Positions 3,547 to 52,168 of a stretch of DNA of 64,000 nt are shown piece after piece. This DNA is from an uncultured Bacteroidota bacterium. Its GTDB lineage: Bacteria; Bacteroidota; Ignavibacteria; Ignavibacteriales; Ignavibacteriaceae. The stretch spans positions 35,235 through 99,234 of the forward strand of contig CAVUXT010000045.1 in NCBI GenBank assembly GCA_963745465.1, read 5' to 3'. Numbering within the stretch: the stretch's first letter is position 1; each line of letters starts with the position of its first letter. The position numbers and the translations under genes were made by a program. The notes under the pieces were generated by a model, which was not told where the DNA came from, made no database searches, and was given only the letters and a program-made list of their open reading frames with translations.

Positions 3547-4566
3547 ATGATGAATATTCAAAAGAACTTCTCACTAAAAAATCTTAATACTTTCGGCATA
3601 GATGTAAAGGCAAGGTTTTTTGCTGATATTAAATCCGAGGATCAACTCGGTCTTATCCTGTCTGACAATAAATTTATGGATGTCCCTAAAATAATTTTAG
3701 GTGGCGGAAGCAATATTCTATTTATTCAGGATTTTGACGGAGTGGTAATAAAAAATTCAATATCAGGAATTACAATTATTCAGGAAGACGCTGACTCAAT
3801 CTTTATTAAAGCAGGAGCAGGTGAAATCTGGCACGACATGGTTTTGTTTTGTGTTGAAAAAAATTATGGCGGCATTGAAAACCTTTCATTAATTCCGGGA
3901 ACGGTTGGCGCTGCGCCGATTCAAAACATCGGCGCTTATGGGCAGGAAATTAAAGATGTATTTGTAAGTCTTGAAGGAATTTTTATTGACACGGCTAAGA
4001 AAAAAGAGTTTTTAAATATGCAATGTGAATTTGGCTACAGGGACAGTATATTTAAGAAAGAACTAAAAAATAAATTTGTAATTACTTCAATCGTTTTGAA
4101 ACTAAGTAAAAATCCCATACCAAATTTGGAATATGGAACAATAAAAGAGGAAATTGCAAAATTAAATCTTGATAGGATTACAATTAAAAATGTAAGTGAT
4201 GTAATCTGCAACATTCGAAAAAGCAAATTACCTGATCCAAAACAGATTGGTAATGCGGGAAGTTTTTTTAAAAATCCTGAAATAGAAAGTAGAAAATATT
4301 CTGAATTAGAAATAAATTTTCCTGGTATTCCCGGTTATAAAATGCAAAATGATAAGGTAAAGATTCCTGCAGCCTGGTTGATAGAAAAATGCGGATTTAA
4401 AGGAAAAAGAGTAGGGAATACTGGAACTCATCCAAAGCAGCCCCTTGTGCTGGTAAATTATGGTAATGCAAGTGGTTCTGAAATACTTGGTTTTGCTAAT
4501 ATTATTAAATCCTCTGTGAAAGACAAATTTGGTATTTTACTGGAAGAAGAAATAAATATAGTATAA
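3547..4566 (+). CDS. murB: UDP-N-acetylenolpyruvoylglucosamine reductase
   Basis: NTFGIDVKA, ILGGGSNILF, ENLSLIPGTVGAAPIQNIGAYG, FGYRDSIFK and GSFFKNP are MurB type-I motifs. The ATG at 3547 is preferred over the upstream TTG at 3469. Confidence 0.9.
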   Translation: MMNIQKNFSLKNLNTFGIDVKARFFADIKSEDQLGLILSDNKFMDVPKIILGGGSNILFIQDFDGVVIKNSISGITIIQEDADSIFIKAGAGEIWHDMVLFCVEKNYGGIENLSLIPGTVGAAPIQNIGAYGQEIKDVFVSLEGIFIDTAKKKEFLNMQCEFGYRDSIFKKELKNKFVITSIVLKLSKNPIPNLEYGTIKEEIAKLNLDRITIKNVSDVICNIRKSKLPDPKQIGNAGSFFKNPEIESRKYSELEINFPGIPGYKMQNDKVKIPAAWLIEKCGFKGKRVGNTGTHPKQPLVLVNYGNASGSEILGFANIIKSSVKDKFGILLEEEINIV

Positions 4567-4682
4567 ACGGCTAATGCCGTTGAATTTCAGCATCCTTATT
4601 TTTAATTTATATAAATTAGTTGCCGTCCAAAAGATGGAACTTTTCCCCAAAAAACTTCTTGCAATCCAAGGAGCCTAAAAAT

Positions 4683-5501
4683 ATGAAAGATCAGAAGAAG
4701 GACGAACAAGTTTTATCCGCTTACGAGAAGGCAGCCCAGGAAGGTGTTGATCCAAGATGTATCCCGCAGAAATTGCGGGGACCAGTGCCCGAACATGATG
4801 AAATTATATATCCGAATTATCCTCAGTCAGATCACGAATCCTGGAAATATCTTTTCGACAGGCAAATGAAATACTTACCAAATAGAGCTTGTGATGAATA
4901 TATTAATGGAGTGGATAAATTAAATTTTACAAGGGATAGAATTCCGGCTTTAAAAGATTTGAGCCATGTGTTTAATCAAACTACAGGATGGAAAGTTGCA
5001 CGTGTTCCGGGATTAATCGATGTAAATGATTTTTTTGGACTTCTGCGCAGGAGAGTTTTTCCATCGACCGATTATATTCGTGGCAAAGAAGAACTTGATT
5101 ACACACCTGCTCCGGATTGCTTTCACGATATGTTTGGTCATATGCCATTGTTGACAGATAAGGATTTTGCAGAGTTTTATCAGCAATTTGGCGAAGCGGC
5201 TTTAAAAGCGGAAGGCAAGAACAGAAAATATCTTGAAACTTTTCATTGGTTTACAGTTGAATTTGGTTTGATACATAAACCTGAAGGAATGAGGATTTAT
5301 GGTGCAGGAATACTTTCATCAAAAGGTGAAGTCCAGCACGCACTTTCTGATAAAGTTGAAGTTAGAGATTTTGATCCTGAAAAAATTGTTGTGCAGGATT
5401 ATGATGTATGGCACTTGCAGCCGGTTCTTTTCGCTATCAAATCATTTGAACAGCTAAAAGACGGTTTCAAACGATGGACTAAAGAACTTGGCCTGTTATA
5501 G
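4683..5501 (+). CDS. phhA: Phenylalanine-4-hydroxylase (pterin-dependent aromatic amino acid hydroxylase)
   Basis: Iron-ligand region PDCFHDMFGHMPLL and HWFTVEFGL. AAGGAG at 4668-4673 lies 9 nt before the ATG at 4683. Confidence 0.9.
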   Translation: MKDQKKDEQVLSAYEKAAQEGVDPRCIPQKLRGPVPEHDEIIYPNYPQSDHESWKYLFDRQMKYLPNRACDEYINGVDKLNFTRDRIPALKDLSHVFNQTTGWKVARVPGLIDVNDFFGLLRRRVFPSTDYIRGKEELDYTPAPDCFHDMFGHMPLLTDKDFAEFYQQFGEAALKAEGKNRKYLETFHWFTVEFGLIHKPEGMRIYGAGILSSKGEVQHALSDKVEVRDFDPEKIVVQDYDVWHLQPVLFAIKSFEQLKDGFKRWTKELGLL

Positions 5502-5655
5502 TTAGTCTTGGATTAATTTTAAAAAGGTGATCAGCCCTAACAACTTACTTTGATTAGAGAAAATTTTCTAACTTGAAAATCCTGCCGTAAATGTCTAATT
5601 TAATTAGTCTTAAAAGCCAATAAAATTTCGAATTATATTCAAACAAGGAGTTATT

Positions 5656-6126
5656 ATGTCAGTAAAAGTAGGAGACCAGGCACCTGGATTTACATTACCT
5701 AATCAAAACAAGGAAAAAATTAGTCTCGATAATTATAAGGGCAAAAAAATTGTTCTGCTATTTTTCCCTTTTGCTGGAAGCGGTGGTTGCACAAAGGAAA
5801 TGTGCAGCTTTAGAGATGAATTAAAAAGGTACGAAGATCTTGACGCACAGGTTTTAGCTGTAAGTGTCGATAGCATTTATGCATTAAAATTATTTGAAGA
5901 AAAAAACAAGTATAATTTCCCTTTGTTAAGCGATTTTAATAAAGAGGTTATAACCAAATACGGTGTAGTTGATAATGCATTTGCTGCGGGATCTTTAGAT
6001 TATATAGGTGTAGCTAAAAGATCAGCTTTTGTAATTGGAAAAGACGGAAAAGTAAAATATGCGGAAATACTTCCATCGCCTGGTGATGAGGTAAATTACG
6101 AAGCTATTAAAAGTGCACTTAAATAA
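5656..6126 (+). CDS. Peroxiredoxin, PrxQ/BCP-like (C-x4-C)
   Basis: Thioredoxin-fold AhpC/TSA pattern LLFFPFAGSGGCTKEMCSFRD. RBS AAGGAG lies upstream. Confidence 0.8.
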   Translation: MSVKVGDQAPGFTLPNQNKEKISLDNYKGKKIVLLFFPFAGSGGCTKEMCSFRDELKRYEDLDAQVLAVSVDSIYALKLFEEKNKYNFPLLSDFNKEVITKYGVVDNAFAAGSLDYIGVAKRSAFVIGKDGKVKYAEILPSPGDEVNYEAIKSALK

Positions 6127-6128
6127 AT

Positions 6129-6449
6129 ATGATAAAACAAATTTCTCCATCAGAAGTCAAAACGCTTCTTGATTCAGGTGAAAAGTTGCGGCTTATAGAT
6201 GTACGGGAAAAATGGGAATATGATACTGCTAAAATTGAAAACTCAGAACTAATGCCCCTTAGTGAATTTAATGATCATTATGATAAATTAAATCACAATG
6301 ATAACCTTATAATTTGTTGTCACACTGGCAATAGGAGTTTTACAGTTTGCGCTTATCTCATTAAGAATGGTTTTAAGAATGTAAGTAATCTTGATGGAGG
6401 AATTACTGCCTGGTCTCAAGAAGTGGATCCATCAATACCGATATATTAA
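6129..6449 (+). CDS. Rhodanese-like sulfurtransferase domain protein
   Basis: A 106-aa single rhodanese domain with active-site loop CCHTGNRS and LDGGITAW. Confidence 0.85.
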   Translation: MIKQISPSEVKTLLDSGEKLRLIDVREKWEYDTAKIENSELMPLSEFNDHYDKLNHNDNLIICCHTGNRSFTVCAYLIKNGFKNVSNLDGGITAWSQEVDPSIPIY

Positions 6450-40906: not shown

Positions 40907-42220
40907 ATGAAAAAACCACTTGTAGTAATAATTGGCAGACCGAACGTAGGAAAATCAACGCTATTTAACAGGCTAATTGGTCAAAAAGATGCGATTGTTG
41001 ATAATATTAGCGGGGTTACTCGTGACAGAAATTACGGCGAGGCGGAATGGACCGGGAAAGAATTCAGGTTGATCGATACAGGGGGATATGTGCCGGATTC
41101 TCCAGACCTGTTTGAAACTGCAATCAGAGATCAGGTAGAAATTGCTATCGATGAGGCAGATAAGATAATATTCCTGGTTGATGTGCGTGACGGTATAAAT
41201 CCAATGGATGCCGAAATCATTAAGATGCTGAGAAGTGCTGGTAAGGAGTTTTTCTTAACAGTAAATAAAGTTGATTCCGAAAAATATGAAGCAGCTGTAA
41301 ATGAATTTTATTCACTCGGAGTTGACCAGGTACATGACATTTCAGCATTAATGGGGAGAAAGATAGGAGATTTTTTAGATATAGTGACTAAAGACTTTCC
41401 ACAAAAAGATACTATTAATGAAAATGATAATATATTAAAAATTGCAATAGTTGGAAGGCCAAATGTTGGTAAGTCATCTCTTACAAATGCATTACTTGGG
41501 GTTGACAGAAGTATCGTAACCGATATTCCGGGAACAACCCGTGATAGCCTTGATTCAATTTTAAAATATTATGGCGAAGAAATTATTCTTATTGATACAG
41601 CTGGTTTGAGAAAAAAGAAAAGAGTTGATGAGAGCATAGAATTTTATTCAAACCTTCGTTCTCTCAAAGCAATTGGAGAGTGCGAAGTTGCAATTGTGAT
41701 GATTGATGCTAAATCGGGATTGGAAAATCAGGATCAGAAAATTATTGATGAAGCTGTAAGATGGAGGAAGGGAATTATCATTGCGGTTAATAAATGGGAT
41801 TTAGTTGAAAAAGAAACTAACACAGCAAAAAAGATGGAAAATGAAATAAAACAAAGATTGGGAGCAATTGATTATATCCCTGTTTTATTTGTATCAGCCC
41901 TGACGAAGCAAAGAATCTTTAAACTGGTAGAATTAAGCAAAAAAATACACGCGGAAAGAAAAAAGAAAATTACTACAAGCGAATTAAATGAAATCCTTTT
42001 GCCTGAAATTGAAAATATTCCGCCTCCTACAACTCATACAGGAAAAGAGGTGAAGATTAAATATATCACACAAGTCGGGGACCATTATCCTATTTTTCTT
42101 TTTTTTGCTAATTACCCTAAAAATATCCCGGATCATTATAAGAGATTTTTAGAAAAACTAATCAGAAAACATTTTGGATTTGAAGGCGTCCCTTTTACGT
42201 TAAGTTTTAAAGATAAATGA
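40907..42220 (+). CDS. der: Ribosome-biogenesis GTPase Der (EngA)
   Basis: Two tandem GTPase domains (GRPNVGKST...DTGG...NKVD and GRPNVGKSS...DTAG...NKWD) plus a KH-like C-terminus. Confidence 0.95.
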   Translation: MKKPLVVIIGRPNVGKSTLFNRLIGQKDAIVDNISGVTRDRNYGEAEWTGKEFRLIDTGGYVPDSPDLFETAIRDQVEIAIDEADKIIFLVDVRDGINPMDAEIIKMLRSAGKEFFLTVNKVDSEKYEAAVNEFYSLGVDQVHDISALMGRKIGDFLDIVTKDFPQKDTINENDNILKIAIVGRPNVGKSSLTNALLGVDRSIVTDIPGTTRDSLDSILKYYGEEIILIDTAGLRKKKRVDESIEFYSNLRSLKAIGECEVAIVMIDAKSGLENQDQKIIDEAVRWRKGIIIAVNKWDLVEKETNTAKKMENEIKQRLGAIDYIPVLFVSALTKQRIFKLVELSKKIHAERKKKITTSELNEILLPEIENIPPPTTHTGKEVKIKYITQVGDHYPIFLFFANYPKNIPDHYKRFLEKLIRKHFGFEGVPFTLSFKDK

Positions 42221-43566
42221 TCAAGCCTAAAAAAATAATAGTTGTAGGGGGAAATGCAGCGGGTCCGGCTGCTGCGGCTAAAGCTAAGAGATTTAACACG
42301 GATGCTGAAGTTATTCTTATTGAAGCAAGTGAGTTTATTTCAACCGGAACGTGTGAGATCCCGTATGTTATCTCAGGCGATATAGACGATTATAACAAAA
42401 TCCTATTCTTTACACCTGAAGTATTTCGCATCCAAAAAGGAGTTAAGGTTTATACAAATCACGAAGTTGTATCAATTAACAGGAAAGAAAAAAAAATACA
42501 AGCAAGGGATCTTAGGAGTAATAGCTCGGTTGAGTTCAGTTATGACAAACTAGTTCTTGCAACTGGCTCCGTCTCAAAAAAACTCAATCAATTTCCGACA
42601 GCTTTCAAAAATGTATATAATTTAAAAAATGTTAGTGACCTGGTAAATATTCTTGAACTGAAAAAAGAAAAAAAACTATCAAAAATTGTTATAATCGGCT
42701 CAGGCTATATTGGCCTTGAAGCAGCTGAGGCGTTCAGTAGACTGGGGATTTCTGTCACGATTCTTGAAAAAAATAAATATCCACTTCCTTCAGTTGAATC
42801 AGAAATACAATACTTGATTTATGAATTGCTGGCACAAAATGACATATCATTTTATGCTAATGCTGAAAAATTTAAAACTACATCCACAGATGCATATTTA
42901 AAAAGTATAAATCTTGACAGCAGATTGCTCGAGTTTGATATTATTCTTGTTGCCACCGGGTTTTTGCCAAATGTTGAACTTGCTAAAAATTGTGGGTTGG
43001 AGATCGGAATAAAAGGAGGAATCAAAGTTGACACAAAACTGCGCACTTCCTGCCAGGACATTTACGCAGCTGGTGATAACATTGAAGTTATTAATGCAGT
43101 TACAAACCGCTCTGATTATATTCCACTGGCAACTATTGCTCACGATTATGGTCATATTGCAGGGGAAAATGCTGCAGGTGGTAACAAAAGGGCGGAAGCG
43201 GTAGTAAAAAATCTTGCAGTAAAAATATTCGATAAATATTTAGTTCAGGTAGGACTAAGTTCTGTTGAAGCCAAAGCTGAAAATTATTTATTTAGTACAG
43301 TTCAGAAGGTTGCGCCTAATTTAGTTGAAGTTATGCCGGGAAGTGAAAAGGTATTTGGGAAAATTATTTATGAAAAAGACAGCAAGAGAATTCTTGGAGC
43401 ATCCTTTTTTGGCGGAAGGGAAGTCTCAGGATATGGCGATATAATTTCAACCCTGATTAAAACAAAACAAAATGCCGGGGTCTTAGCTTCAATTAATTAT
43501 AATTATACTCCGCCACTTTCACCATTTGTTAATTTGCTGTCAGTGCTTGGAAGAGAAATTATTTAA
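42217..43566 (+). CDS. FAD-dependent pyridine nucleotide-disulfide oxidoreductase (CoA-disulfide reductase / NADH oxidase family)
   Basis: GGNAAGPAAAAKAKR FAD motif, single redox Cys in STGTCEIPY, second Rossmann IIGSGYIGLEAAE, and AAGD. Confidence 0.85.
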   Translation: MIKPKKIIVVGGNAAGPAAAAKAKRFNTDAEVILIEASEFISTGTCEIPYVISGDIDDYNKILFFTPEVFRIQKGVKVYTNHEVVSINRKEKKIQARDLRSNSSVEFSYDKLVLATGSVSKKLNQFPTAFKNVYNLKNVSDLVNILELKKEKKLSKIVIIGSGYIGLEAAEAFSRLGISVTILEKNKYPLPSVESEIQYLIYELLAQNDISFYANAEKFKTTSTDAYLKSINLDSRLLEFDIILVATGFLPNVELAKNCGLEIGIKGGIKVDTKLRTSCQDIYAAGDNIEVINAVTNRSDYIPLATIAHDYGHIAGENAAGGNKRAEAVVKNLAVKIFDKYLVQVGLSSVEAKAENYLFSTVQKVAPNLVEVMPGSEKVFGKIIYEKDSKRILGASFFGGREVSGYGDIISTLIKTKQNAGVLASINYNYTPPLSPFVNLLSVLGREII

Positions 43567-43582
43567 TCTTTGGAGATTTTAA

Positions 43583-44221
43583 ATGAAAAGCGGATTTAAA
43601 AATTTTACAGTATTAGATCATCCGATGATAAAAAGGGATGTAACTTTGCTGCGTGACAAGCTCACGGAACCTGAAGCATTCAGAGCGGCAGTGAAAAGAA
43701 TATCAACCGTTTTGTCTGTAGAAATTAGCAGAAGTTTTAAATTAATTTCTTTTAAAGTTGAAACTCCTCTTGAAATAACTGAGGGGTACAAGACTTCTCA
43801 GGATGTTGTACTTGTCCCGGTATTAAGAGCCGGACTTGGAATGGTCAGTGGTTTTCTTGCCATACTGCCTGATGCACGAGTGGGGCACATAGGATTGCAG
43901 AGAGATGAAAGCACTTTGAAACCCATAGAGTATTATTATAAAACGCCAAAAAATATTAATGTTGCTACTGTCATATTGATAGATCCTATGCTTGCTACCG
44001 GTGGCAGCGCATCAGAGGCCATTAAATTTCTGAAAAAAAGGGGAGCAAAAAATATTATGTTCGCTTGTTTAGTCGCGGCGCCGGAAGGAATAAAAAGGTT
44101 AGAGAAAGATCATCCTGATGTTAAAATATTTGGAGCGGCGCTCGATAGAGAATTAAATGATAGGGGGTACATACTTCCGGGACTCGGGGATGCAGGAGAC
44201 AGGACTTTTGGTACATTATAA
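43583..44221 (+). CDS. upp: Uracil phosphoribosyltransferase
   Basis: VPVLRAGLGM, the PRPP loop LIDPMLATGGSA and YILPGLGDAGDR. Confidence 0.95.
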   Translation: MKSGFKNFTVLDHPMIKRDVTLLRDKLTEPEAFRAAVKRISTVLSVEISRSFKLISFKVETPLEITEGYKTSQDVVLVPVLRAGLGMVSGFLAILPDARVGHIGLQRDESTLKPIEYYYKTPKNINVATVILIDPMLATGGSASEAIKFLKKRGAKNIMFACLVAAPEGIKRLEKDHPDVKIFGAALDRELNDRGYILPGLGDAGDRTFGTL

Positions 44222-45230
44222 AAAAATTATAGTTCTCATATTTTTTATATTCGCATTTAGAAATTATGCACAAACCTATCCTGATCCTGTTGTTGATTCC
44301 CTTTTAAAGTGCGGTACAAGTGATATAATAATGCAGAATTATAAGCATGCAAAATCCACTTTTGAATATCTGAATAATACTTACAGCAAACTGCCGCTTG
44401 GAAATATTTATCTTGTAGCTACTGAAATTGCGAGGGCTTACGATTTTGAAGAGCCTTTTAACACAGACTACATAACTGCCAATCTGGATACGGCTGAGTC
44501 GAAAACAAAGAGTCTTTTAGACAAAGATGAAAATAGTCTTTGGAATATTTATTTCCGGGCACTGGATGAAGGATATTATGCATATTTTCAAGTGCTCCGT
44601 AAAAACTGGTTGTCTGCCTTATCTAATGGTTTCGATGCTGTGCGTGATTTCCAAAAGTGTCTTAACATAGACCCGGATTTTTATGAAGCTAATCTGGCAA
44701 TCGGCAGTTACCAATACTGGCGGAGCAGGAAAACCGAATTTCTGAAGTGGATTCCTTTTGTTAAAGATGAAACGGAATTAGGAATAAAAAATCTGCAAAT
44801 TGCAGTTGACCATGCTTCCTACCACAGGTATTCAGCAATTAATTCTCTTCTTTGGATTTATATTGATCAGAAAAAATTCCGGGCGGCTATTGATCTGGCT
44901 GAAAAGACATTAAAGCAATTTCCCGGGAGCAGATTTTTTATATGGCCGCTGGCTCGGGCGTATGAGGCGGTCGATATTCAAAAATCAATCGATGAATATA
45001 ACAAACTATTGGACTATTATTCGGGTCTTCCGGATTCAAATTTTTATAATATAATTGTCATAAAACATATTCTTGCGCAACAATATGTGAAATTGGGAAA
45101 TAAGAAAACTGCGTTGGAGCTGTGTGACCAAATCCTCTCGATTAAAGGCCTCTCAGATTATGTAAGGGATCGATTGGGAGACAGGCTTGACCGCGTAAGA
45201 GACCTGAAAGAGGAACTTTCCGGCAATTAG
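44190..45230 (+). CDS. Hypothetical TPR-like secreted protein
   Basis: N-terminal hydrophobic signal KKIIVLIFFIFAFRNYAQ and a helical-repeat body. The start is uncertain: the ORF overlaps the upp 3' end, with candidates ATG 44190 and TTG about 44208. Confidence 0.5.
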   Translation: MQETGLLVHYKKIIVLIFFIFAFRNYAQTYPDPVVDSLLKCGTSDIIMQNYKHAKSTFEYLNNTYSKLPLGNIYLVATEIARAYDFEEPFNTDYITANLDTAESKTKSLLDKDENSLWNIYFRALDEGYYAYFQVLRKNWLSALSNGFDAVRDFQKCLNIDPDFYEANLAIGSYQYWRSRKTEFLKWIPFVKDETELGIKNLQIAVDHASYHRYSAINSLLWIYIDQKKFRAAIDLAEKTLKQFPGSRFFIWPLARAYEAVDIQKSIDEYNKLLDYYSGLPDSNFYNIIVIKHILAQQYVKLGNKKTALELCDQILSIKGLSDYVRDRLGDRLDRVRDLKEELSGN

Positions 45231-45304
45231 ATAGCTATTCCCCCTTTTTTAAGCTATTTAACTATTCCCAAAAATAAAGTAAATTACAACACATTGTAAT
45301 TAAA

Positions 45305-47497
45305 ATGCATTATGCAAGTAATATGAGTATAGCTAATACAAAAGATAAAAAGATGCTTGATGATCTCATTGCGACCTGCAGAAAAAATCTGCCGAGCGTA
45401 AATGAACCACTTATTGCAAAAGCATTCGAATTTTGTATCGAAGCTCATAAAAATGACCTGCGTGCTTCGGGCGAACCTTATTTTACGCATCCTTACGAAG
45501 TAGCTATGATAGTAGCAAAAGAATTTCCGCTTGATGACATTACAGTTGTCAGCACTCTTTTGCATGATGTTGTGGAAGACACTGAATTTAATCTTGATAT
45601 GCTGGCAAGGGAATTCGGAAAGGAAGTAGCTGAGATAGTGGACGGAGTAACAAAAATCAGCGGGATATTTAAAGGACAGGAAATCACTCAGGCTGAAAAT
45701 TACAGGAAACTCCTCCTCTCAATGGTAAAAGATATAAGGGTTATTCTTGTGAAATTTGCCGACCGTCTTCATAATATGAGAACGCTTGAATTTGTTAGCC
45801 CGGATAAGCAAAGAAGAATTGCACAGGAAACCTTGGAAATTTATGCTCCTTTTGCAAATCGTTTTGGTTTGGGAAGAGTAAAATGGGAACTAGAAGATCT
45901 TTCATTTAAATATTTAAACAAGGAAGCCTACGAAGAAATAGCTAAAAAGATTAAAAGCAAAAGACGTGAAAGAGAATCTTATATTAAAAAATTCAGTGAA
46001 CCGATCAAAGACAAGCTGGATGAGTATTCTTTAAAATATGATATAAGCGGAAGGGCAAAACATCTTTACAGTATTTACAGAAAAATGGTAAGACGAAATA
46101 AACCATTCGAAGAAATTTATGATCTTTTTGCAATCAGAATAATTCTGGATACTCCAAATACAAATGATTGTTATACTACTCTTGGTATCGTTAATCAAAT
46201 TTATCTTCCTGTGCCTGACAGGTTCAAAGATTATATCTCTATTCCCAAGACCAATAACTATCAGTCAATCCACACAACCGTAGTGGGTCCTGAGGGAAGG
46301 CTTGTAGAAGTTCAAATAAGAACCACTAAAATGCATGAAGTAGCAGAAAAAGGTGTTGCTGCCCATTGGAGATATAAAGAAGATAAAGCAGCTTCTGATA
46401 AAGATATGGAAACGTGGGTAAACTGGATAAGGGAGATTTTTGAAAATGCTTCTAAAGATGAAGCACGAAAAGAACTATTGGAAAGTTTTAAGCTTAATCT
46501 TTATCAGTATGAAATTTATGTCTTTACTCCAAAGGGTGAACTGAGAAGGCTGCCAGCCAATTCAACTCCGGTTGATTTTGCATTTGCCATTCACAGTAAT
46601 GTGGGATTTCATTGCATCGGGGCAAAGGTAAATGGAAAGATCGTTCCACTCGATACTCTACTGCATAGCGGGGACCAGGTGGAAATTATTACTTCAAAGA
46701 ATCAGCATCCAAATAAAAGCTGGGCAAAATTTGTTATTACTCACAAAGCTAAATCTGCTATAAGAAAATGGATAAACAAGGAAGATGAAGAGATTGTCGA
46801 AACAGGAAAAGATTTGTGGGAAAAGAAAACCAAAAAAATGAAATTATCTTTTAACCAGGCAGATGTTGAAAAGATAGCTTTGAATCTTAAATTTGATAAT
46901 TCCAAACAATTTTATCGATCGATAGCTCAAGGTAAAATAAATCTTGAAGAAGTACTCTCTGCTACCCGGGAGCAGGATAATAAATCTAAAGAAGCCCATC
47001 AAATTGCCTTTGATAGTTTTGCTGCATCGGCCAGGCAGGATATTGGTGGAGTGCTAATCGAAGGGAAAAAATCTGATATTCTTTATTCTTATGCTAAATG
47101 TTGTAACCCGATTCCTGGTGATCCGGTAGTAGGATATATTACTGTTGGAGAAGGTATAAAGATACATAGAAAAACGTGCAGCACACTTTTAAATATTTCA
47201 GAAAAAGATAATTCTAAACTTGTTCCCGTTCAATGGCCGGTGACAGACAGTTCATTATTTGTGGCAGGGCTGAGCGTAACCGGTGATGATTCTCCGGGCA
47301 TCCTAAATGAAATTTCTCATGCAATTGTTTCGTATCAAAACACTAACATCAAATCCATAAACATTAATACAAGTAATTCTGCTTTTGAAGGTAGTGTATC
47401 ATTGTATGTTCACAACATCGATCACCTGACCAGGATCATGGACAGGTTAAAAAAATTAAAAGGAATTTATTCAGTTGAAAGATTTGAAAGCCTTTAG
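45305..47497 (+). CDS. spoT: Bifunctional (p)ppGpp synthetase/hydrolase RelA/SpoT (RSH)
   Basis: HD hydrolase domain (HPYEVA...LLHDVVEDT), synthetase domain (RAKHLYSIYRKM...DLFAIRIIL...YQSIHTTV), TGS (VFTPKGELRRLPANSTPVDFAFAIHS) and a C-terminal ACT. Confidence 0.95.
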   Translation: MHYASNMSIANTKDKKMLDDLIATCRKNLPSVNEPLIAKAFEFCIEAHKNDLRASGEPYFTHPYEVAMIVAKEFPLDDITVVSTLLHDVVEDTEFNLDMLAREFGKEVAEIVDGVTKISGIFKGQEITQAENYRKLLLSMVKDIRVILVKFADRLHNMRTLEFVSPDKQRRIAQETLEIYAPFANRFGLGRVKWELEDLSFKYLNKEAYEEIAKKIKSKRRERESYIKKFSEPIKDKLDEYSLKYDISGRAKHLYSIYRKMVRRNKPFEEIYDLFAIRIILDTPNTNDCYTTLGIVNQIYLPVPDRFKDYISIPKTNNYQSIHTTVVGPEGRLVEVQIRTTKMHEVAEKGVAAHWRYKEDKAASDKDMETWVNWIREIFENASKDEARKELLESFKLNLYQYEIYVFTPKGELRRLPANSTPVDFAFAIHSNVGFHCIGAKVNGKIVPLDTLLHSGDQVEIITSKNQHPNKSWAKFVITHKAKSAIRKWINKEDEEIVETGKDLWEKKTKKMKLSFNQADVEKIALNLKFDNSKQFYRSIAQGKINLEEVLSATREQDNKSKEAHQIAFDSFAASARQDIGGVLIEGKKSDILYSYAKCCNPIPGDPVVGYITVGEGIKIHRKTCSTLLNISEKDNSKLVPVQWPVTDSSLFVAGLSVTGDDSPGILNEISHAIVSYQNTNIKSININTSNSAFEGSVSLYVHNIDHLTRIMDRLKKLKGIYSVERFESL

Positions 47498-47940
47498 TGC
47501 TAATGACTGAAGAAAACTTTAAGAGAATTTTGGCACTTGACTACGGAGCAAAAAGAATAGGAGTTGCTCTTAGTGATCCGCTTATGACTTTTGCCTACCC
47601 TCATTCTACAATTTATAACGATACTAAAATCTGGAAAGAAATTAGTAAATTAATTACTGAAAAAAATATTATCAGAATCATCCTTGGTTATCCTTTCAGG
47701 GAAGATGGGAAACTATCCTCGCTTGGATCAGATATTACTAAATTTAAATCAGAGCTTGAAAAAAAGTACAAGATGGAAGTAATATTATGGGACGAAAGAT
47801 ACACTTCGTCGATTGCTTCGGAAATGATGCTCGAGAGTACACAGAAAAAGAGCAAAAGAAGAGATAAAGGCATAATTGACAGAAATGCTGCGGCAATTAT
47901 TTTGCAGGAATATCTCAATGAACTAAAGCTTAAAGGTTAA
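47497..47940 (+). CDS. ruvX: Holliday-junction-resolvase-like pre-16S rRNA nuclease YqgF/RuvX
   Basis: ILALDYGAKRIGVALSD, a 3' region DERYTS and IDRNAAAIILQEYL. Confidence 0.9.
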   Translation: MLMTEENFKRILALDYGAKRIGVALSDPLMTFAYPHSTIYNDTKIWKEISKLITEKNIIRIILGYPFREDGKLSSLGSDITKFKSELEKKYKMEVILWDERYTSSIASEMMLESTQKKSKRRDKGIIDRNAAAIILQEYLNELKLKG

Positions 47941-47971
47941 ATTGAGGTGGCAGTAATAAAAAACTTTATAA

Positions 47972-48000
47972 TTGACATTTAAGTACCTATAAAGTATTTT
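47972..48000 (+). promoter_or_regulatory. Sigma-70-like promoter candidate for the BMC shell operon
   Basis: TTGACA (47972-47977), a 17-nt spacer and TATTTT (47995-48000). A GGAG RBS lies 7 nt before the ATG at 48035. Confidence 0.3.
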
Positions 48001-48034
48001 TCTAAAAGCAATTCAAATAAATTGGAGCATATCA

Positions 48035-48313
48035 ATGGCACTAGACGCACTAGGAATGATAGAAACAAAAGGCCTGGTCGGTTCGATCGAAGCAGCTGAT
48101 GCGATGGTAAAAGCAGCTAAAGTTGAACTACTGGGTAAAGAAACCATCGGTGGTGGTTATGTAACTGTTATGGTTCGTGGAGATGTAGGTGCTGTAAAAG
48201 CAGCAACTGATGCCGGTGCAGCAGCAGCTCAAAGAGTTGGTGAATTAGTGTCAGTTCACGTTATTCCCCGTCCACACGCTGAAGTTGAACAAATTCTTCC
48301 AAAAAGAAAATAA
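48035..48313 (+). CDS. Bacterial microcompartment shell protein, BMC-H (Pfam00936 single-domain hexamer type)
   Basis: [77 protein letters not shown] is near-canonical PduA/EutM/CcmK-like sequence. Confidence 0.9.
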
Positions 48314-48319
48314 TAGCTT

Positions 48320-48877
48320 ATGTCACAGGCGTTAGGACTAATCGAAACTAAGGGATTAGTGGCTGCCATAGAAGCAGCGGATGCGATGCTCAAGGCCGCT
48401 AATGTTACTTTTGCTGGGAAGACGGTTACGAATCCTGCATTGATAACAATTAAGGTTGTCGGAGAAACTGCTGCGGTTAAATCAGCAGTAGATGCAGGGG
48501 CAGCAGCAGCTGCGAGAATCGGCCAGGTAGTATCAACTCACATTATCCCTCAACCCGATGAGCAGCTTATTTCAATGCTCCCTGAAATAAAAGATTCAAA
48601 ACCAGAACCTGTACGACCCGGTAAAAAAGAAAAACAAATTAATGAAAATATCTTATCGGAGGAAGTAGAATCTTCCGAAACTATTTCAAGGTTGAAACAG
48701 GAAGCTCTCGGAAAAAAGGAAAAAGACGGAGCAGTAAACGATAATGATATTGAATCAATGAATGTTCATCAACTAAGGCATTTGGCAAGAAGCATCTCTG
48801 AATTTCCGATTAAAGGCAGAGAGATTTCGCGTGCAAACAGGGATGAATTGCTAAAGTATTTCAGAAATTTAGGTTAA
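48320..48877 (+). CDS. BMC-H shell protein paralogue with ~100-aa C-terminal extension ending in a HeH/Rho_N-like helix-extension-helix motif
   Basis: N-terminal ALGLIETKGLVAAIEAADAMLKAANVTFAGKTVTNPALITIKVVGETAAVKSAVDAGAAAAARIGQVVSTHIIPQP. This is followed by a Lys/Glu/Pro-rich linker and MNVHQLRHLARSISEFPIKGREISRANRDELLKYF. Confidence 0.85.
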   Translation: MSQALGLIETKGLVAAIEAADAMLKAANVTFAGKTVTNPALITIKVVGETAAVKSAVDAGAAAAARIGQVVSTHIIPQPDEQLISMLPEIKDSKPEPVRPGKKEKQINENILSEEVESSETISRLKQEALGKKEKDGAVNDNDIESMNVHQLRHLARSISEFPIKGREISRANRDELLKYFRNLG

Positions 48878-48902
48878 AAGCAAAAAAAATTTAAATTAAA
48901 TA

Positions 48903-48929
48903 AAACTCCACATATAGTGGAGTTTTTTT
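48903..48929 (+). terminator. Rho-independent terminator after the BMC shell operon
   Basis: AAACTCCAC-ATATA-GTGGAGTTT is a perfect 9-bp stem followed by a T-run. Confidence 0.7.
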
Positions 48930-48957
48930 ATGCCTGTTTTCGTTTTATATTTGCACA

Positions 48958-49872
48958 ATGAAGAACAACCTGCACATAATAATAATATCATTTCTTTTTT
49001 CCGTAATTCTATGGATTTCTATTTCGCTTTCAAACGATTATTATTCAACTTTTAGTATTCCATTAAAGTTGGTTGATTTCCAGCAGGGTTTGACCAGCGG
49101 ATCCAGGATCCCGAGGAAAATATCCGTAAAGGTAAAGGGAAAAGGCTGGAAATTAATCTCAGCAAGCATTGGCGCTGAACCAGATTTTGTAGTTTCTGCG
49201 ATCGGCGATACGGGCAAAAAATATATAAATCTTTATAATTACCTTAGCGAAAACCAGTGGCTCTCTTCAGACCTTGAGGTAATTGATATTAACCCTGATA
49301 CTTTAACTTTGAACATTGAAAAAGTCTCCAGTAAAAAACTAAAAATAGACCCTGACATTGATCTTAATTTCAGGGAAGGCTATGGAATTGCTTCACAAAT
49401 TTCTGTAATTCCCGATTCAGTTGTCGTTTACGGCCCATTGAGCGATTTAAAAAAAATGAATTCCATTCCGACTGAAAAAATCAGCCTCAATGATTTAAGT
49501 GATAAATTTGCAACAAGGGTTAATTTAAAAAATCTTCCGGGAATGTCATACGAAGAGAACAACGCATTTATATCCATTGACATTCAAAGAATTGTTGATA
49601 GAAATATTGACGGAATTAATGTTGCGGTAATGGAAGTGCCTAAAGACAGGGAAGTTGTTTTGCTGCCAAATAAAATCTCAATTAATGTTAAAGGAGGGAT
49701 CGATATTTTAGGCAAATTGACGACTGATCAATTTAAAGCTTATGTAAATTACAGGGATGTTGTGATGGATACACTGGGAGGTGTTATTCCGAAGATTGAA
49801 TCACCTGCTGATGTTACAATTCAATATATTAAACCTGATTTGCTCAGGTATGTAATTAAAAAATTTAATTAA
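48958..49872 (+). CDS. YbbR-like domain protein (CdaR-like)
   Basis: N-terminal TM helix followed by repeated beta-rich ~80-aa modules (V.V.G...L..I....I.), typical of YbbR repeats. Confidence 0.6.
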   Translation: MKNNLHIIIISFLFSVILWISISLSNDYYSTFSIPLKLVDFQQGLTSGSRIPRKISVKVKGKGWKLISASIGAEPDFVVSAIGDTGKKYINLYNYLSENQWLSSDLEVIDINPDTLTLNIEKVSSKKLKIDPDIDLNFREGYGIASQISVIPDSVVVYGPLSDLKKMNSIPTEKISLNDLSDKFATRVNLKNLPGMSYEENNAFISIDIQRIVDRNIDGINVAVMEVPKDREVVLLPNKISINVKGGIDILGKLTTDQFKAYVNYRDVVMDTLGGVIPKIESPADVTIQYIKPDLLRYVIKKFN

Positions 49873-49898
49873 CTATTATTCCTATTATTTAGAAAAAA

Positions 49899-50525
49899 AT
49901 GTTTATAACTTTTGAAGGCATAGATTTTTGCGGCAAATCCACCCAGGTAAGTCTTCTTAAAAAATATTTAATTTCCCAAGGCAAAACTGTCGAAATAATA
50001 CGGGAACCGGGCGGTACAGATATATCTGAAATTGTCAGGTCCGTACTGCTGGATAAAAAACATAACCATATGCAGATGGAAACTGAAATATTCCTGTTTT
50101 CTGCTTCACGTGCGCAGTTAGTAAGGGAAAAAATTCAGCCCTCAATTAATAAAGGGGTTTATGTAATTTCCGACCGGTTTCATGATTCAACTACGGCTTA
50201 CCAGGGATATGGCAGAGGTATTGATCTTGAAACTGTCAATCATATAAACAAACTGGCAATTGATGGAGCAGTTCCCGATATTACTTTTTTTATCGATATA
50301 CCGGTTTCAGTTGCGGCTGAAAGAAAAATTACTAAAGGTGAATCGAAACTTGACAGGATGGAACTTTCAGATAATAATTTTTTTGAACGCGTGAGAAAGG
50401 GTTATCTTGCAATAGCTGAAAAGGAAAGCAGGTTCCGCATAATAAATGGTACAAAATCGATTGAAGAAATAAATAAAAAAATTGTTGAAGAAATTAACTT
50501 ATTAGAGAGGAAAGAAGTAGGATGA
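49899..50525 (+). CDS. tmk: Thymidylate kinase
   Basis: FITFEGIDFCGKSTQ P-loop, REPGGT, DRFHDSTTAYQGYGRG. Confidence 0.95.
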   Translation: MFITFEGIDFCGKSTQVSLLKKYLISQGKTVEIIREPGGTDISEIVRSVLLDKKHNHMQMETEIFLFSASRAQLVREKIQPSINKGVYVISDRFHDSTTAYQGYGRGIDLETVNHINKLAIDGAVPDITFFIDIPVSVAAERKITKGESKLDRMELSDNNFFERVRKGYLAIAEKESRFRIINGTKSIEEINKKIVEEINLLERKEVG

Positions 50526-52168
50526 AAATGAAGAACATTAAAAAGTTTGTGCTTGCCGCATTTGTAATATTGCTATTCTCAGGCTTTTTTACGGGATCGA
50601 ATGATATCTATTTTGAAATTTCAAAAAACATCGACCTGTTTGGAAAAGTTTATAAAGAGGTATCCTTCAATTACGTTGAACCGATAGACCCCGAACAATT
50701 TATGAGAGCCGGAATTCAGGGAATGCTGGATGCTCTCGATCCATACACAATGTTTATGGATGAAAATCAAAAACAGGATATTGATCTTATTACAAATGGC
50801 AAGTACGGTGGTATAGGAATTTCAATCGGCGTGCGTGGAGATAAGGTAACCATTATTGAGGTAATGGATGGCTACTCATCTCAAAGACAGGGACTTAGAA
50901 TAGGTGATGTTCTGCTGCAAGCAGACAGCATAAAAATTACGCCGGAAAATTTAGATCAGCTTTCATCTTTAGTTAAAGGAGATCCCGGCACAACTGTTCA
51001 TTTGAAGATTCTCAGAAATGAAGAAAAAGATACCCTAAATTTTAATGTTGTTAGGGAAGAAATAATTGTAAAGAGTTTAACTTATTACGGATTTTATCCT
51101 GCTAACAGTAACAATGTATATCTTAAATTAACAAACTTCAGCAGGTCGGCAGGAGATGAAGTTAAGAAAGCATTACTAGAACTTAAAGCGCAAAAAGAAA
51201 TCAAGTCTATTGTTCTTGATCTGCGCGGAAACCCCGGTGGTTTACTGGACGTTGCAGTTGATATATGCAATAGATTCCTGAAAAAAGGCGATCTTATAGT
51301 AACCACGCGTGGCCGTGATCAAACAGATGAGAAAAAATATTTTGCTGAACAGGAGCCGATTGTCGGGAATTCGAAATTAATTGTACTGATAAACGGAGGA
51401 TCGGCTTCAGCTTCTGAAATATTAGCCGGAGCAATTCAGGATCATGATCGGGGAGTAATACTCGGAACTAAATCATATGGTAAGGGATTGGTGCAAACAA
51501 TTACACCGCTGGATTACAATACTTCTCTAAAAATAACAACAGCAAAATATTATACTCCCAGTGGAAGGTGTATCCAGAAAATCGATTACACTAAAAGCAA
51601 TAAAGTTTTTACGCAACCTGATTCAATTATCAAATCTTCATTTATGACCGATAACAAGCGAACTGTTTTTAGCGGCGGCGGAATCACTCCTGACACTACA
51701 ATTGATTACGTAATTGAGGGAAATATTACAAAAGACCTTCTAGCAAAAGGAATGTTCTTCACTTTTGCGGATTATTATTATTACCAGAACCAAAACCAGG
51801 ATTTTAGTAAAATCGATGATGCAATTATTTTTGATCAATTTGAAAAATATCTAAAAGAACAAAAATATGTTTATCATTCAGATGCTGAAAAGCAGGTGGA
51901 CAAAATGATAGCCGATGTGAGCAAAAGGAAAGATAACGGCGCTTTATCTGCTGATCTCGAGCGAATTAAAAATGAATTTGACAAGCTTGATCAGACTGAA
52001 CTAAAAATCTATAACGATGAAATCTTAAGAGAAATCAAAGGAGAATTAGCAGCGCGCTATCTCGGCAATAATGGAAGGACAGAAGTATATCTTAAATATG
52101 ACAGGCAATTCCAGGCTGCATTGAATATACTTAATGACAGTACGGATTATAACAACTTATTGAAGTGA
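50522..52168 (+). CDS. S41 family carboxy-terminal processing peptidase
   Basis: PDZ segment (GGIGISIG...GDVLLQAD), catalytic region DLRGNPGGLL...INGGSASASEILAGA...GTKSYGKGLVQ. Confidence 0.9.
   Translation: MKMKNIKKFVLAAFVILLFSGFFTGSNDIYFEISKNIDLFGKVYKEVSFNYVEPIDPEQFMRAGIQGMLDALDPYTMFMDENQKQDIDLITNGKYGGIGISIGVRGDKVTIIEVMDGYSSQRQGLRIGDVLLQADSIKITPENLDQLSSLVKGDPGTTVHLKILRNEEKDTLNFNVVREEIIVKSLTYYGFYPANSNNVYLKLTNFSRSAGDEVKKALLELKAQKEIKSIVLDLRGNPGGLLDVAVDICNRFLKKGDLIVTTRGRDQTDEKKYFAEQEPIVGNSKLIVLINGGSASASEILAGAIQDHDRGVILGTKSYGKGLVQTITPLDYNTSLKITTAKYYTPSGRCIQKIDYTKSNKVFTQPDSIIKSSFMTDNKRTVFSGGGITPDTTIDYVIEGNITKDLLAKGMFFTFADYYYYQNQNQDFSKIDDAIIFDQFEKYLKEQKYVYHSDAEKQVDKMIADVSKRKDNGALSADLERIKNEFDKLDQTELKIYNDEILREIKGELAARYLGNNGRTEVYLKYDRQFQAALNILNDSTDYNNLLK

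Follow-up and report, generated by a model that had tools for sequence, protein, structure and literature searches.

The closest described relatives of the protein analysed here belong to the FRAG compartments, the shell genes of which lie dispersed across as many as six loci, in most cases with no enzymes (Sutter et al. 2021, Nat Commun 12:3809, PMC8217296). [quoted passage not shown] 2021 Supplementary Data 2, PMC8217296). C-terminal extensions of BMC-H proteins reach 200 residues (Sutter et al. 2021 main text, PMC8217296), and Melioribacter roseus has seven BMC-P genes distributed over five loci (Axen et al. 2014). The FRAG1 entry of the catalogue is a single sentence with no analysis, and in the literature that appeared after Sutter et al. 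2021 we found no paper on FRAG1.

Two other BMC-H proteins with C-terminal extensions are relevant for the comparison. EutK is described as a BMC-H protein with a positively charged C-terminal domain, which is proposed to bind nucleotides (as cited in PMC12487888). According to the same source, Eut compartments in Salmonella no longer move from the poles of the cell when eutK is deleted, and the C-terminal extension of PduK likewise governs the location of the Pdu compartment (PMC12487888).

The window, i.e. the whole 64,000-nucleotide stretch of DNA that was analysed, contains a plain BMC-H gene and, directly behind it, a gene in which the BMC-H domain is followed by a C-terminal extension. 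The pair has the traits of the FRAG1 tailed BMC-H: an Ignavibacteria-type host, shell genes that stand apart from enzymes, a standard BMC-H as partner, and an ordered extension. The canonical IPRPH of the first protein and the non-canonical IPQPD of the second agree with the catalogue entry as well. The tailed BMC-H architecture is already catalogued and the window protein belongs to it. An earlier note, made from the letters of the DNA, had not recognised such a fusion as a described BMC architecture; the FRAG1 entry and EutK show that it had been described. Its description of an intact BMC-H domain, a charged low-complexity linker and a small C-terminal module was borne out. New relative to the catalogue are the two-module anatomy of the extension, its predicted HeH-like topology, its basic charge and, among the matches listed, its restriction to the C-termini of BMC-H proteins, and also the IPQPD edge, a tail that is more conserved than the shell domain, and the fixed relA-ruvX / ybbR-tmk neighbourhood. 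The features of the locus are the following.

47497-47940, + strand: ruvX, the upstream neighbour of the BMC-H pair
47972..48000, + strand: sigma-70-like promoter-like site (TTGACA, 17 nt, TATTTT), a consensus match only (10/12 matches in a consensus scan that does not cover the promoter types of this lineage)
48035..48313, + strand: plain BMC-H gene, 92 aa (Pfam BMC 104.1 bits), with the canonical edge motif IPRPH
48320..48877, + strand: tailed BMC-H gene, 185 aa plus stop codon, an ORF with full-length homologues
48329..48556, + strand: BMC domain of the tailed protein, residues 4-79 (Pfam PF00936)
48542-48556: IPQPD edge region of the tailed protein, residues 75-79, where facet-forming BMC-H proteins have IPRPH
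48590..48676, + strand: linker 1, residues 91-119, a Glu/Lys/Ser/Pro polyampholyte (pLDDT 47-68)
48677..48712, + strand: module 1, residues 120-131, a short helix, ETISRLKQEALG, with the family consensus (D)TISRLRxEALG
48713..48745, + strand: linker 2, residues 132-142, poorly conserved (pLDDT <50 at 132-137)
48746..48874, + strand: module 2, residues 143-185, a basic domain predicted to be three-helix and HeH-like, with the conserved core from M147 (48758)
48903..48929, + strand: intrinsic-terminator-like hairpin (9-bp stem, 5-nt loop, then a U-run), 26 nt past the stop of the tailed gene
48958-49872: membrane-anchored ybbR-like gene, the downstream neighbour of the BMC-H pair

The tailed gene starts 6 nt beyond the stop of the plain BMC-H gene and its own stop codon is at 48875-48877. 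All coordinates and peptides quoted in the earlier note were found in this ORF: 48575 is the codon of M86, right behind IIPQPDEQLIS, and 48758 is that of M147 in MNVHQLRH. The promoter-like site falls inside the 94-nt gap between ruvX and the plain BMC-H gene, and the RNA fold of the region around the hairpin (48870-48945) has an energy of -14.9 kcal/mol (z = -2.77 vs shuffles). With a promoter-like site before it and a hairpin followed by a U-run after it, the pair looks like a two-gene unit of its own. Its upstream member scored 137.4 bits with the NCBIfam EutM model (cut-off 133). The ORF list has no ORF of at least 40 aa on the opposite strand of the tail region, and neither tandem repeats nor any relevant RNA family or tRNA was found at the locus. 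There are no BMC-H genes in the 64-kb window besides the pair, and a tblastn search of the window with two approximate BMC-P queries gave no match, which is consistent with dispersal of the shell genes and is no proof of it.

The BMC domain of the tailed protein aligned with positions 1-75 of the 75 positions of PF00936 at 83.9 bits (E 7.7e-24), far above the gathering cut-off of 24.5 for single-domain BMC-H proteins, and in the full-length AlphaFold2 model its pLDDT is 94-98. The KAAN motif is kept (K25-N28), but at the edge the canonical IPRPH is replaced by IPQPD. In 34 homologues P77, P79 and D80 are invariant and Q78 is nearly invariant, thus the IPQPD edge is a family-wide trait. The combination of KAAN with this edge identifies the tailed protein as a specialised, not a basal, BMC-H, and the altered edge motif suggests that it makes up a small share of the shell, scattered between standard hexamers. 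The pore loop, too, is peculiar: it reads TVTNPAL (48422-48442), a family-conserved sequence, vs the Gly-rich TIGGGY of the plain BMC-H.

Behind the BMC domain two conserved modules alternate with two variable linkers. Across the family linker 1 is 18-160 aa and linker 2 is 10-63 aa long, the window protein being among the shortest members. Both linkers are rich in Glu, Lys, Ser and Pro, their charge is slightly acidic to neutral, and their mean pairwise identity is 13% (129 homologues). Module 1, the TISRLRxEALG helix, is a second conserved element, which was absent from the earlier note. Its residues T121, L125, E128 and A129 are invariant and R124, R126 and L130 nearly so (34 homologues), its mean pairwise identity is 56% (129 homologues), and in the AlphaFold2 model the helix spans residues 120-129, with low-confidence linkers on either side. 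Module 2 has a consensus of about 40 residues, NVHQLRxLARSxxxFPI(K/Q)GR(E/Q)IS(R/K)ANRxxLxxxF, with 15 invariant columns; the invariant polar residues are H150, R153, R157, R167, S170, N173 and R174, and invariant Arg, Asn and Ser stand at the starts of helices. The module is basic, with a family median net charge of +4 and a pI of about 10.8. In the 129 homologues the mean pairwise identity of the tail block (70%) exceeds that of the BMC domain (61%), and no part of the protein is better conserved than the tail. A variant subfamily (P0238, P0241, P0264 and P0265; locus L082) has the short helix HLxKLRxEAxSELK and tails ending in LLDYLKxL. Judged from these motifs both modules seem to change together, which could reflect mutual interaction or merely shared descent.

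A search of a 5.8-billion-protein collection with the tailed protein gave 7464 matches at E <=0.001, most of them via the BMC domain. The best 120 of the 7464 are 173-275 aa long and 43-76% identical to the query, nearly all cover 98-100% of it including the tail, and their named sources are Ignavibacteria. An exhaustive HMMER search of 1.84 billion cluster representatives with a tail profile gave 603 matches at E <=0.001 (289 at <=1e-10). In all 150 matches listed (the best 150 of the 603) the tail module is at the extreme C-terminus, and 110 of the 141 not-seen-before matches among those listed have the N-terminal BMC domain (residues 1-90), while the remaining 31 are mostly N-terminally shortened, beginning within the linker or within the BMC domain. 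We therefore rejected the idea of a free-standing or widely shared domain: among the matches listed the module occurs only at BMC-H C-termini, so its function cannot be inferred from other domain contexts. In two of the 31, P0211 (136 aa) and P0264 (258 aa), the tail stands behind an unrelated N-terminal sequence, which in P0264 includes a metallo-beta-lactamase-like HxHxDH segment; either chimeras of gene calling or uncommon architectures of another kind may lie behind them.

The fold of the tail was predicted with AlphaFold2 from a 44-residue construct and 56 aligned tails. A prediction of disorder would have counted against the reading of the earlier note; the construct folds at a mean pLDDT of 94.7 (pTM 0.74), with a helix at construct positions 8-17, an extended segment at 18-25 (S-I-x-x-F-P-I-K-G), a one-turn helix at 26-30 and a last helix at 33-43. 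The full-length AlphaFold2 model likewise has a confident BMC domain and tail, with disorder at 91-119 and 132-137, and its pTM of 0.53 indicates that the domains have no fixed arrangement. The tail resembles Rho_N (PF07498) and SAP (PF02037) in its length of about 40 residues, in the modelled succession of a helix, an extended linker with Gly and a helix, and in the hxxLRxhA pattern of the leading helix. Unlike these domains, the tail has an insertion of about five residues (the FPIxG region) and, between the outer helices, an additional short one.

In profile comparisons the likeness was weak. The window tail itself matched neither Rho_N nor SAP in Pfam. When the 56 tails were scanned singly, Rho_N was the weak family that matched the most members (9/56, E 0.007-0.17), the best tail reaching 16.7 bits, below the curated cut-off of 24.9. 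The longest Rho_N alignment pairs tail residues 2-37 with positions 1-31 of 43, which implies the five-residue insertion in the tail, and the other alignments cover the first helix only. SAP was matched by 1/56 tails, at 12.4 bits (cut-off 23.9) and in the first helix only. Weak matches to DUF5835, SAM_KIDINS220 and CdiA_C_tRNase were rejected as inconsistent across members. No significant match of the tail was found in Pfam, NCBIfam or the PDB sequences; the best hit of the tail profile against all PDB sequences was a short motif of fumarase (E 0.24). A comparison of the tail profile by hhalign with residues 1-53 of E. coli Rho, used as a single-sequence template, gave a probability of 0.14 and no alignment, and when phage genomes were searched by tblastn with the consensus of the tail, the matches were at chance level only, in glycosyltransferases.

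Comparison of structures pointed in the same direction as the Rho_N alignments. Foldseek found 31 matches of the tail model in the PDB, none below E 1.8, four of which are Rho chains with TM values up to about 0.5. Among the predicted viral structures of BFVD the top match is a [quoted passage not shown] of Gordonia phage GMA6 (probability 0.85, TM 0.68, rmsd 2.0 A over 40 columns, 30% identity, E 0.6), and behind it are many matches with 40-42 columns and TM 0.6-0.8. The agreement of three weak lines (Pfam, Foldseek against the PDB and Foldseek against BFVD) makes a helix-extended-helix fold, the class named in the earlier note, likely. Membership of the tail in the Rho_N or SAP family is not established. 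The HeH/Rho_N likeness put forward in the earlier note thus stands as far as the modelled topology and weak Rho_N and Foldseek matches are concerned, and falls short of a significant profile match, all matches being below threshold.

It is worth comparing the tailed protein with EutK and PduK at this point. EutK has the same layout: a linker joins its one BMC-H domain to a C-terminal domain that is small, ordered and positively charged. Its C-terminal domain reportedly is of helix-turn-helix type, a finding ascribed to Tanaka and co-workers in 2010. We looked for homology between the two tails in NCBIfam and, by Foldseek, in the PDB, and did not find it: the EutK equivalog model NF012010 aligns with residues 1-100 only (model positions 1-100 of 166) at 86.1 bits vs a cut-off of 218, and there are no EutK structures among the 31 Foldseek matches. 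Unlike the window gene, eutK is encoded within the enzyme-rich eut operon. The extension of PduK differs in another respect, it is described as disordered and has no counterpart of the 40-residue module. If the functions of the EutK tail and the window tail match, this would be convergence of non-homologous tails on one design.

To see how widely the fusion occurs among relatives, as the earlier note had proposed, one-genome-per-species contigs were scanned twice, with 80 loci displayed per scan. The tail is encoded in 337 (first scan) and 344 (second scan) species genomes, about 340 in either case. All 80 loci displayed for each scan are Ignavibacteria-type. Ignavibacteriaceae and Melioribacteraceae are among them, as are the isolate Stygiobacter electus, Melioribacter sp. 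Ez-97 and complete MAG chromosomes; the generic labels 'Bacteroidetes' or 'Chlorobiota' are found on a few tail-bearing MAGs. Among the loci listed, including those of the second scan, which was seeded with the most divergent tails, the tail was not found outside Ignavibacteria-type genomes.

The gene order, followed by tblastn with the window neighbours, is der, upp, (TPR), relA/spoT, ruvX, BMC-H, tailed BMC-H, ybbR-like, tmk, S41 peptidase. It was found in every locus that was long enough, with the exception of L046, where the upstream genes and the tail alone were matched, and the locus of the divergent tail variant P0238 (L082) has the same downstream genes. The block from der to the S41 peptidase (42217-52168 in the window) keeps its order and strand in essentially all loci examined (L001-L082). 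Microcompartment genes are normally accessory and mobile, and it is unusual to find shell genes set into an invariable array of housekeeping genes in which nucleotide metabolism is well represented. The neighbours (relA, ruvX, the ybbR-like gene, tmk and the S41 peptidase gene) are not BMC enzymes. In the same block of the window the upp ORF (43583-44221) and the ORF of the TPR protein (44157-45230) share 65 nt, read in different frames (43583-45230), and the true start of the TPR protein is probably further downstream than 44157. Most related loci have a plain BMC-H directly upstream of the tailed gene, whereas about six (L020, L023, L028, L054, L056 and L080) have a single BMC gene at this position. 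In L020 (9446-10135) the BMC domain has kept neither the lysine of KAAN nor the IPQPD edge, and both tail modules are almost unchanged, which suggests that the function of the tail can outlive normal shell tiling.

What could the tail do? To our knowledge, the concave face of the hexamers is directed towards the cytosol in all solved shells; in the HO shell structure, said to have been published in Science by Sutter and co-workers in 2017, the concave side reportedly faces outward. Both termini of BMC-H proteins are on the concave face (PMC5534457). The tailed gene most likely codes for the second, specialised hexamer protein of the FRAG1 compartment, apparently co-transcribed with the canonical BMC-H. 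If the same orientation holds here, each hexamer would, by the geometry of the BMC-H fold, hold six tethered modules outside the shell. It must be noted that FRAG1 compartments are known from genes alone, and that the outward orientation of the tail is carried over from other shells. Module 2 with its basic charge, perhaps aided by the short helix of module 1, might then bind a cytosolic polyanion, most likely nucleoid DNA or RNA, or otherwise an acidic protein partner. By this binding the compartments would be anchored or distributed within the cell, a role that EutK and PduK have for the Eut and Pdu compartments. By analogy with these two proteins we tentatively favour the view that the tailed BMC-H is an outward-facing tethered adaptor, which positions the shell through predicted polyanion or protein binding. 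That the modules are invariant while the length of their tethers differs about ten-fold is what a 'fishing line' for reaching a partner would show, not a structural element. Two considerations count against the nucleic acid side of this proposal: a charge of +4 is not high for 39 residues and the linkers next to the module are acidic, which speaks against polyanion binding, and HeH-type domains bind proteins as well as nucleic acids.

The main alternative is that the tail is an outside adaptor between proteins, whose module 2 and/or TISRLRxEALG helix recruits a specific cytosolic protein, such as a positioning ATPase of the ParA/McdA type, an element of the cytoskeleton or a membrane protein, without nucleic acid binding. 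Some domains of the HeH class, e.g. LEM, are established protein binders, and the many invariant polar residues, together with charged invariant residues in the second helix, typify a specific interface, not generic polyanion binding. Among inclusions with dedicated positioning factors, PHB granules are tied to the nucleoid by PhaM. In carboxysomes the task falls to McdAB, a shell-binding adaptor with a ParA-type ATPase (cited in PMC12487888). The likeness to McdAB and PhaM is one of function only, a surface factor that ties an inclusion to the nucleoid for distribution at cell division; in both cases the adaptor is a separate protein and not a shell subunit, and no ParA-type partner was identified here, so the comparison is offered as a proposal on how the tail might work and not as an assignment to a family. 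No candidate partner gene adjoins the pair, the neighbours forming a housekeeping block, and among the matches listed no other protein family carries the module, thus no partner can be deduced from domain architectures. On balance, we regard a tail that acts purely between proteins as somewhat unlikely.

A more far-reaching version of the favoured adaptor reading would make the FRAG1 shells vertically inherited core-genome organelles with a partition device of their own, in which six HeH-like tails tether the compartment to the nucleoid or to RNA, either replacing a ParA/McdAB-type system or linking an enzyme-poor compartment to nucleic acids. We hold this to be doubtful; were it true, the position of the genes among upp, relA/spoT, ruvX and tmk would be more than coincidence.

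It could also be argued that the extension works inside the compartment, as a scaffold carried by the shell, on which cargo is recruited or nucleated, the short amphipathic helix serving as an encapsulation peptide in reverse. As encapsulation-peptide HMMs found no matches and FRAG1 loci are shell-only, recruitment of cargo would need some other device, and module 1 has the layout of an encapsulation peptide, a modelled short helix (120-129) between low-confidence linkers, but it is carried by a shell protein and not by a cargo enzyme. A place inside the compartment is hard to reconcile with the position of the BMC-H termini on the face that is outward in solved shells, with the external role indicated by EutK and PduK, and with the size of the tethers, which at up to roughly 300 residues (members of the family reach 467 aa) and six per hexamer would crowd the lumen. 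We consider a luminal role improbable.

Tail-only 'proteins' of 40-75 aa are present in the database. In L001, a long-read MAG contig, a 257-aa BMC gene (5253-6026) overlaps at its 3' end with a 53-aa tail ORF (6001-6162), and within 4470-6162 of this contig ruvX is split in two ORFs, one of which is fused to a BMC domain; the broken genes at this locus indicate that the tail-only entries are frameshift fragments. An artefactual origin of the extension itself (frameshift, assembly error or read-through into non-coding DNA), which the earlier note had allowed for and in favour of which the tail-only entries and the broken genes of L001 might be cited, is next to impossible and was rejected, since these short ORFs are fragments themselves, more than 100 protein clusters align end to end with the window protein, tail included, the tail is found in about 340 genomes, and its constraint is stronger than that of the BMC domain.

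The adaptor proposed above concerns the least understood class of the BMC catalogue, as FRAG compartments have no signature enzyme and no recognisable encapsulation peptides. The tailed hexamer is the most distinctive part of FRAG1, and its tail is more conserved than its shell domain, thus it offers a concrete handle on the system. If the tail anchors the compartment to the nucleoid or to another partner, the positioning by tailed BMC-H proteins known from EutK and PduK would extend to a distant phylum and to an unrelated domain, and engineered shells would gain, in the tailed protein, a natural scaffold of small size for 'display'. If, instead, the tail binds only some protein, that partner may give the first clue to the role of the FRAG1 compartment.
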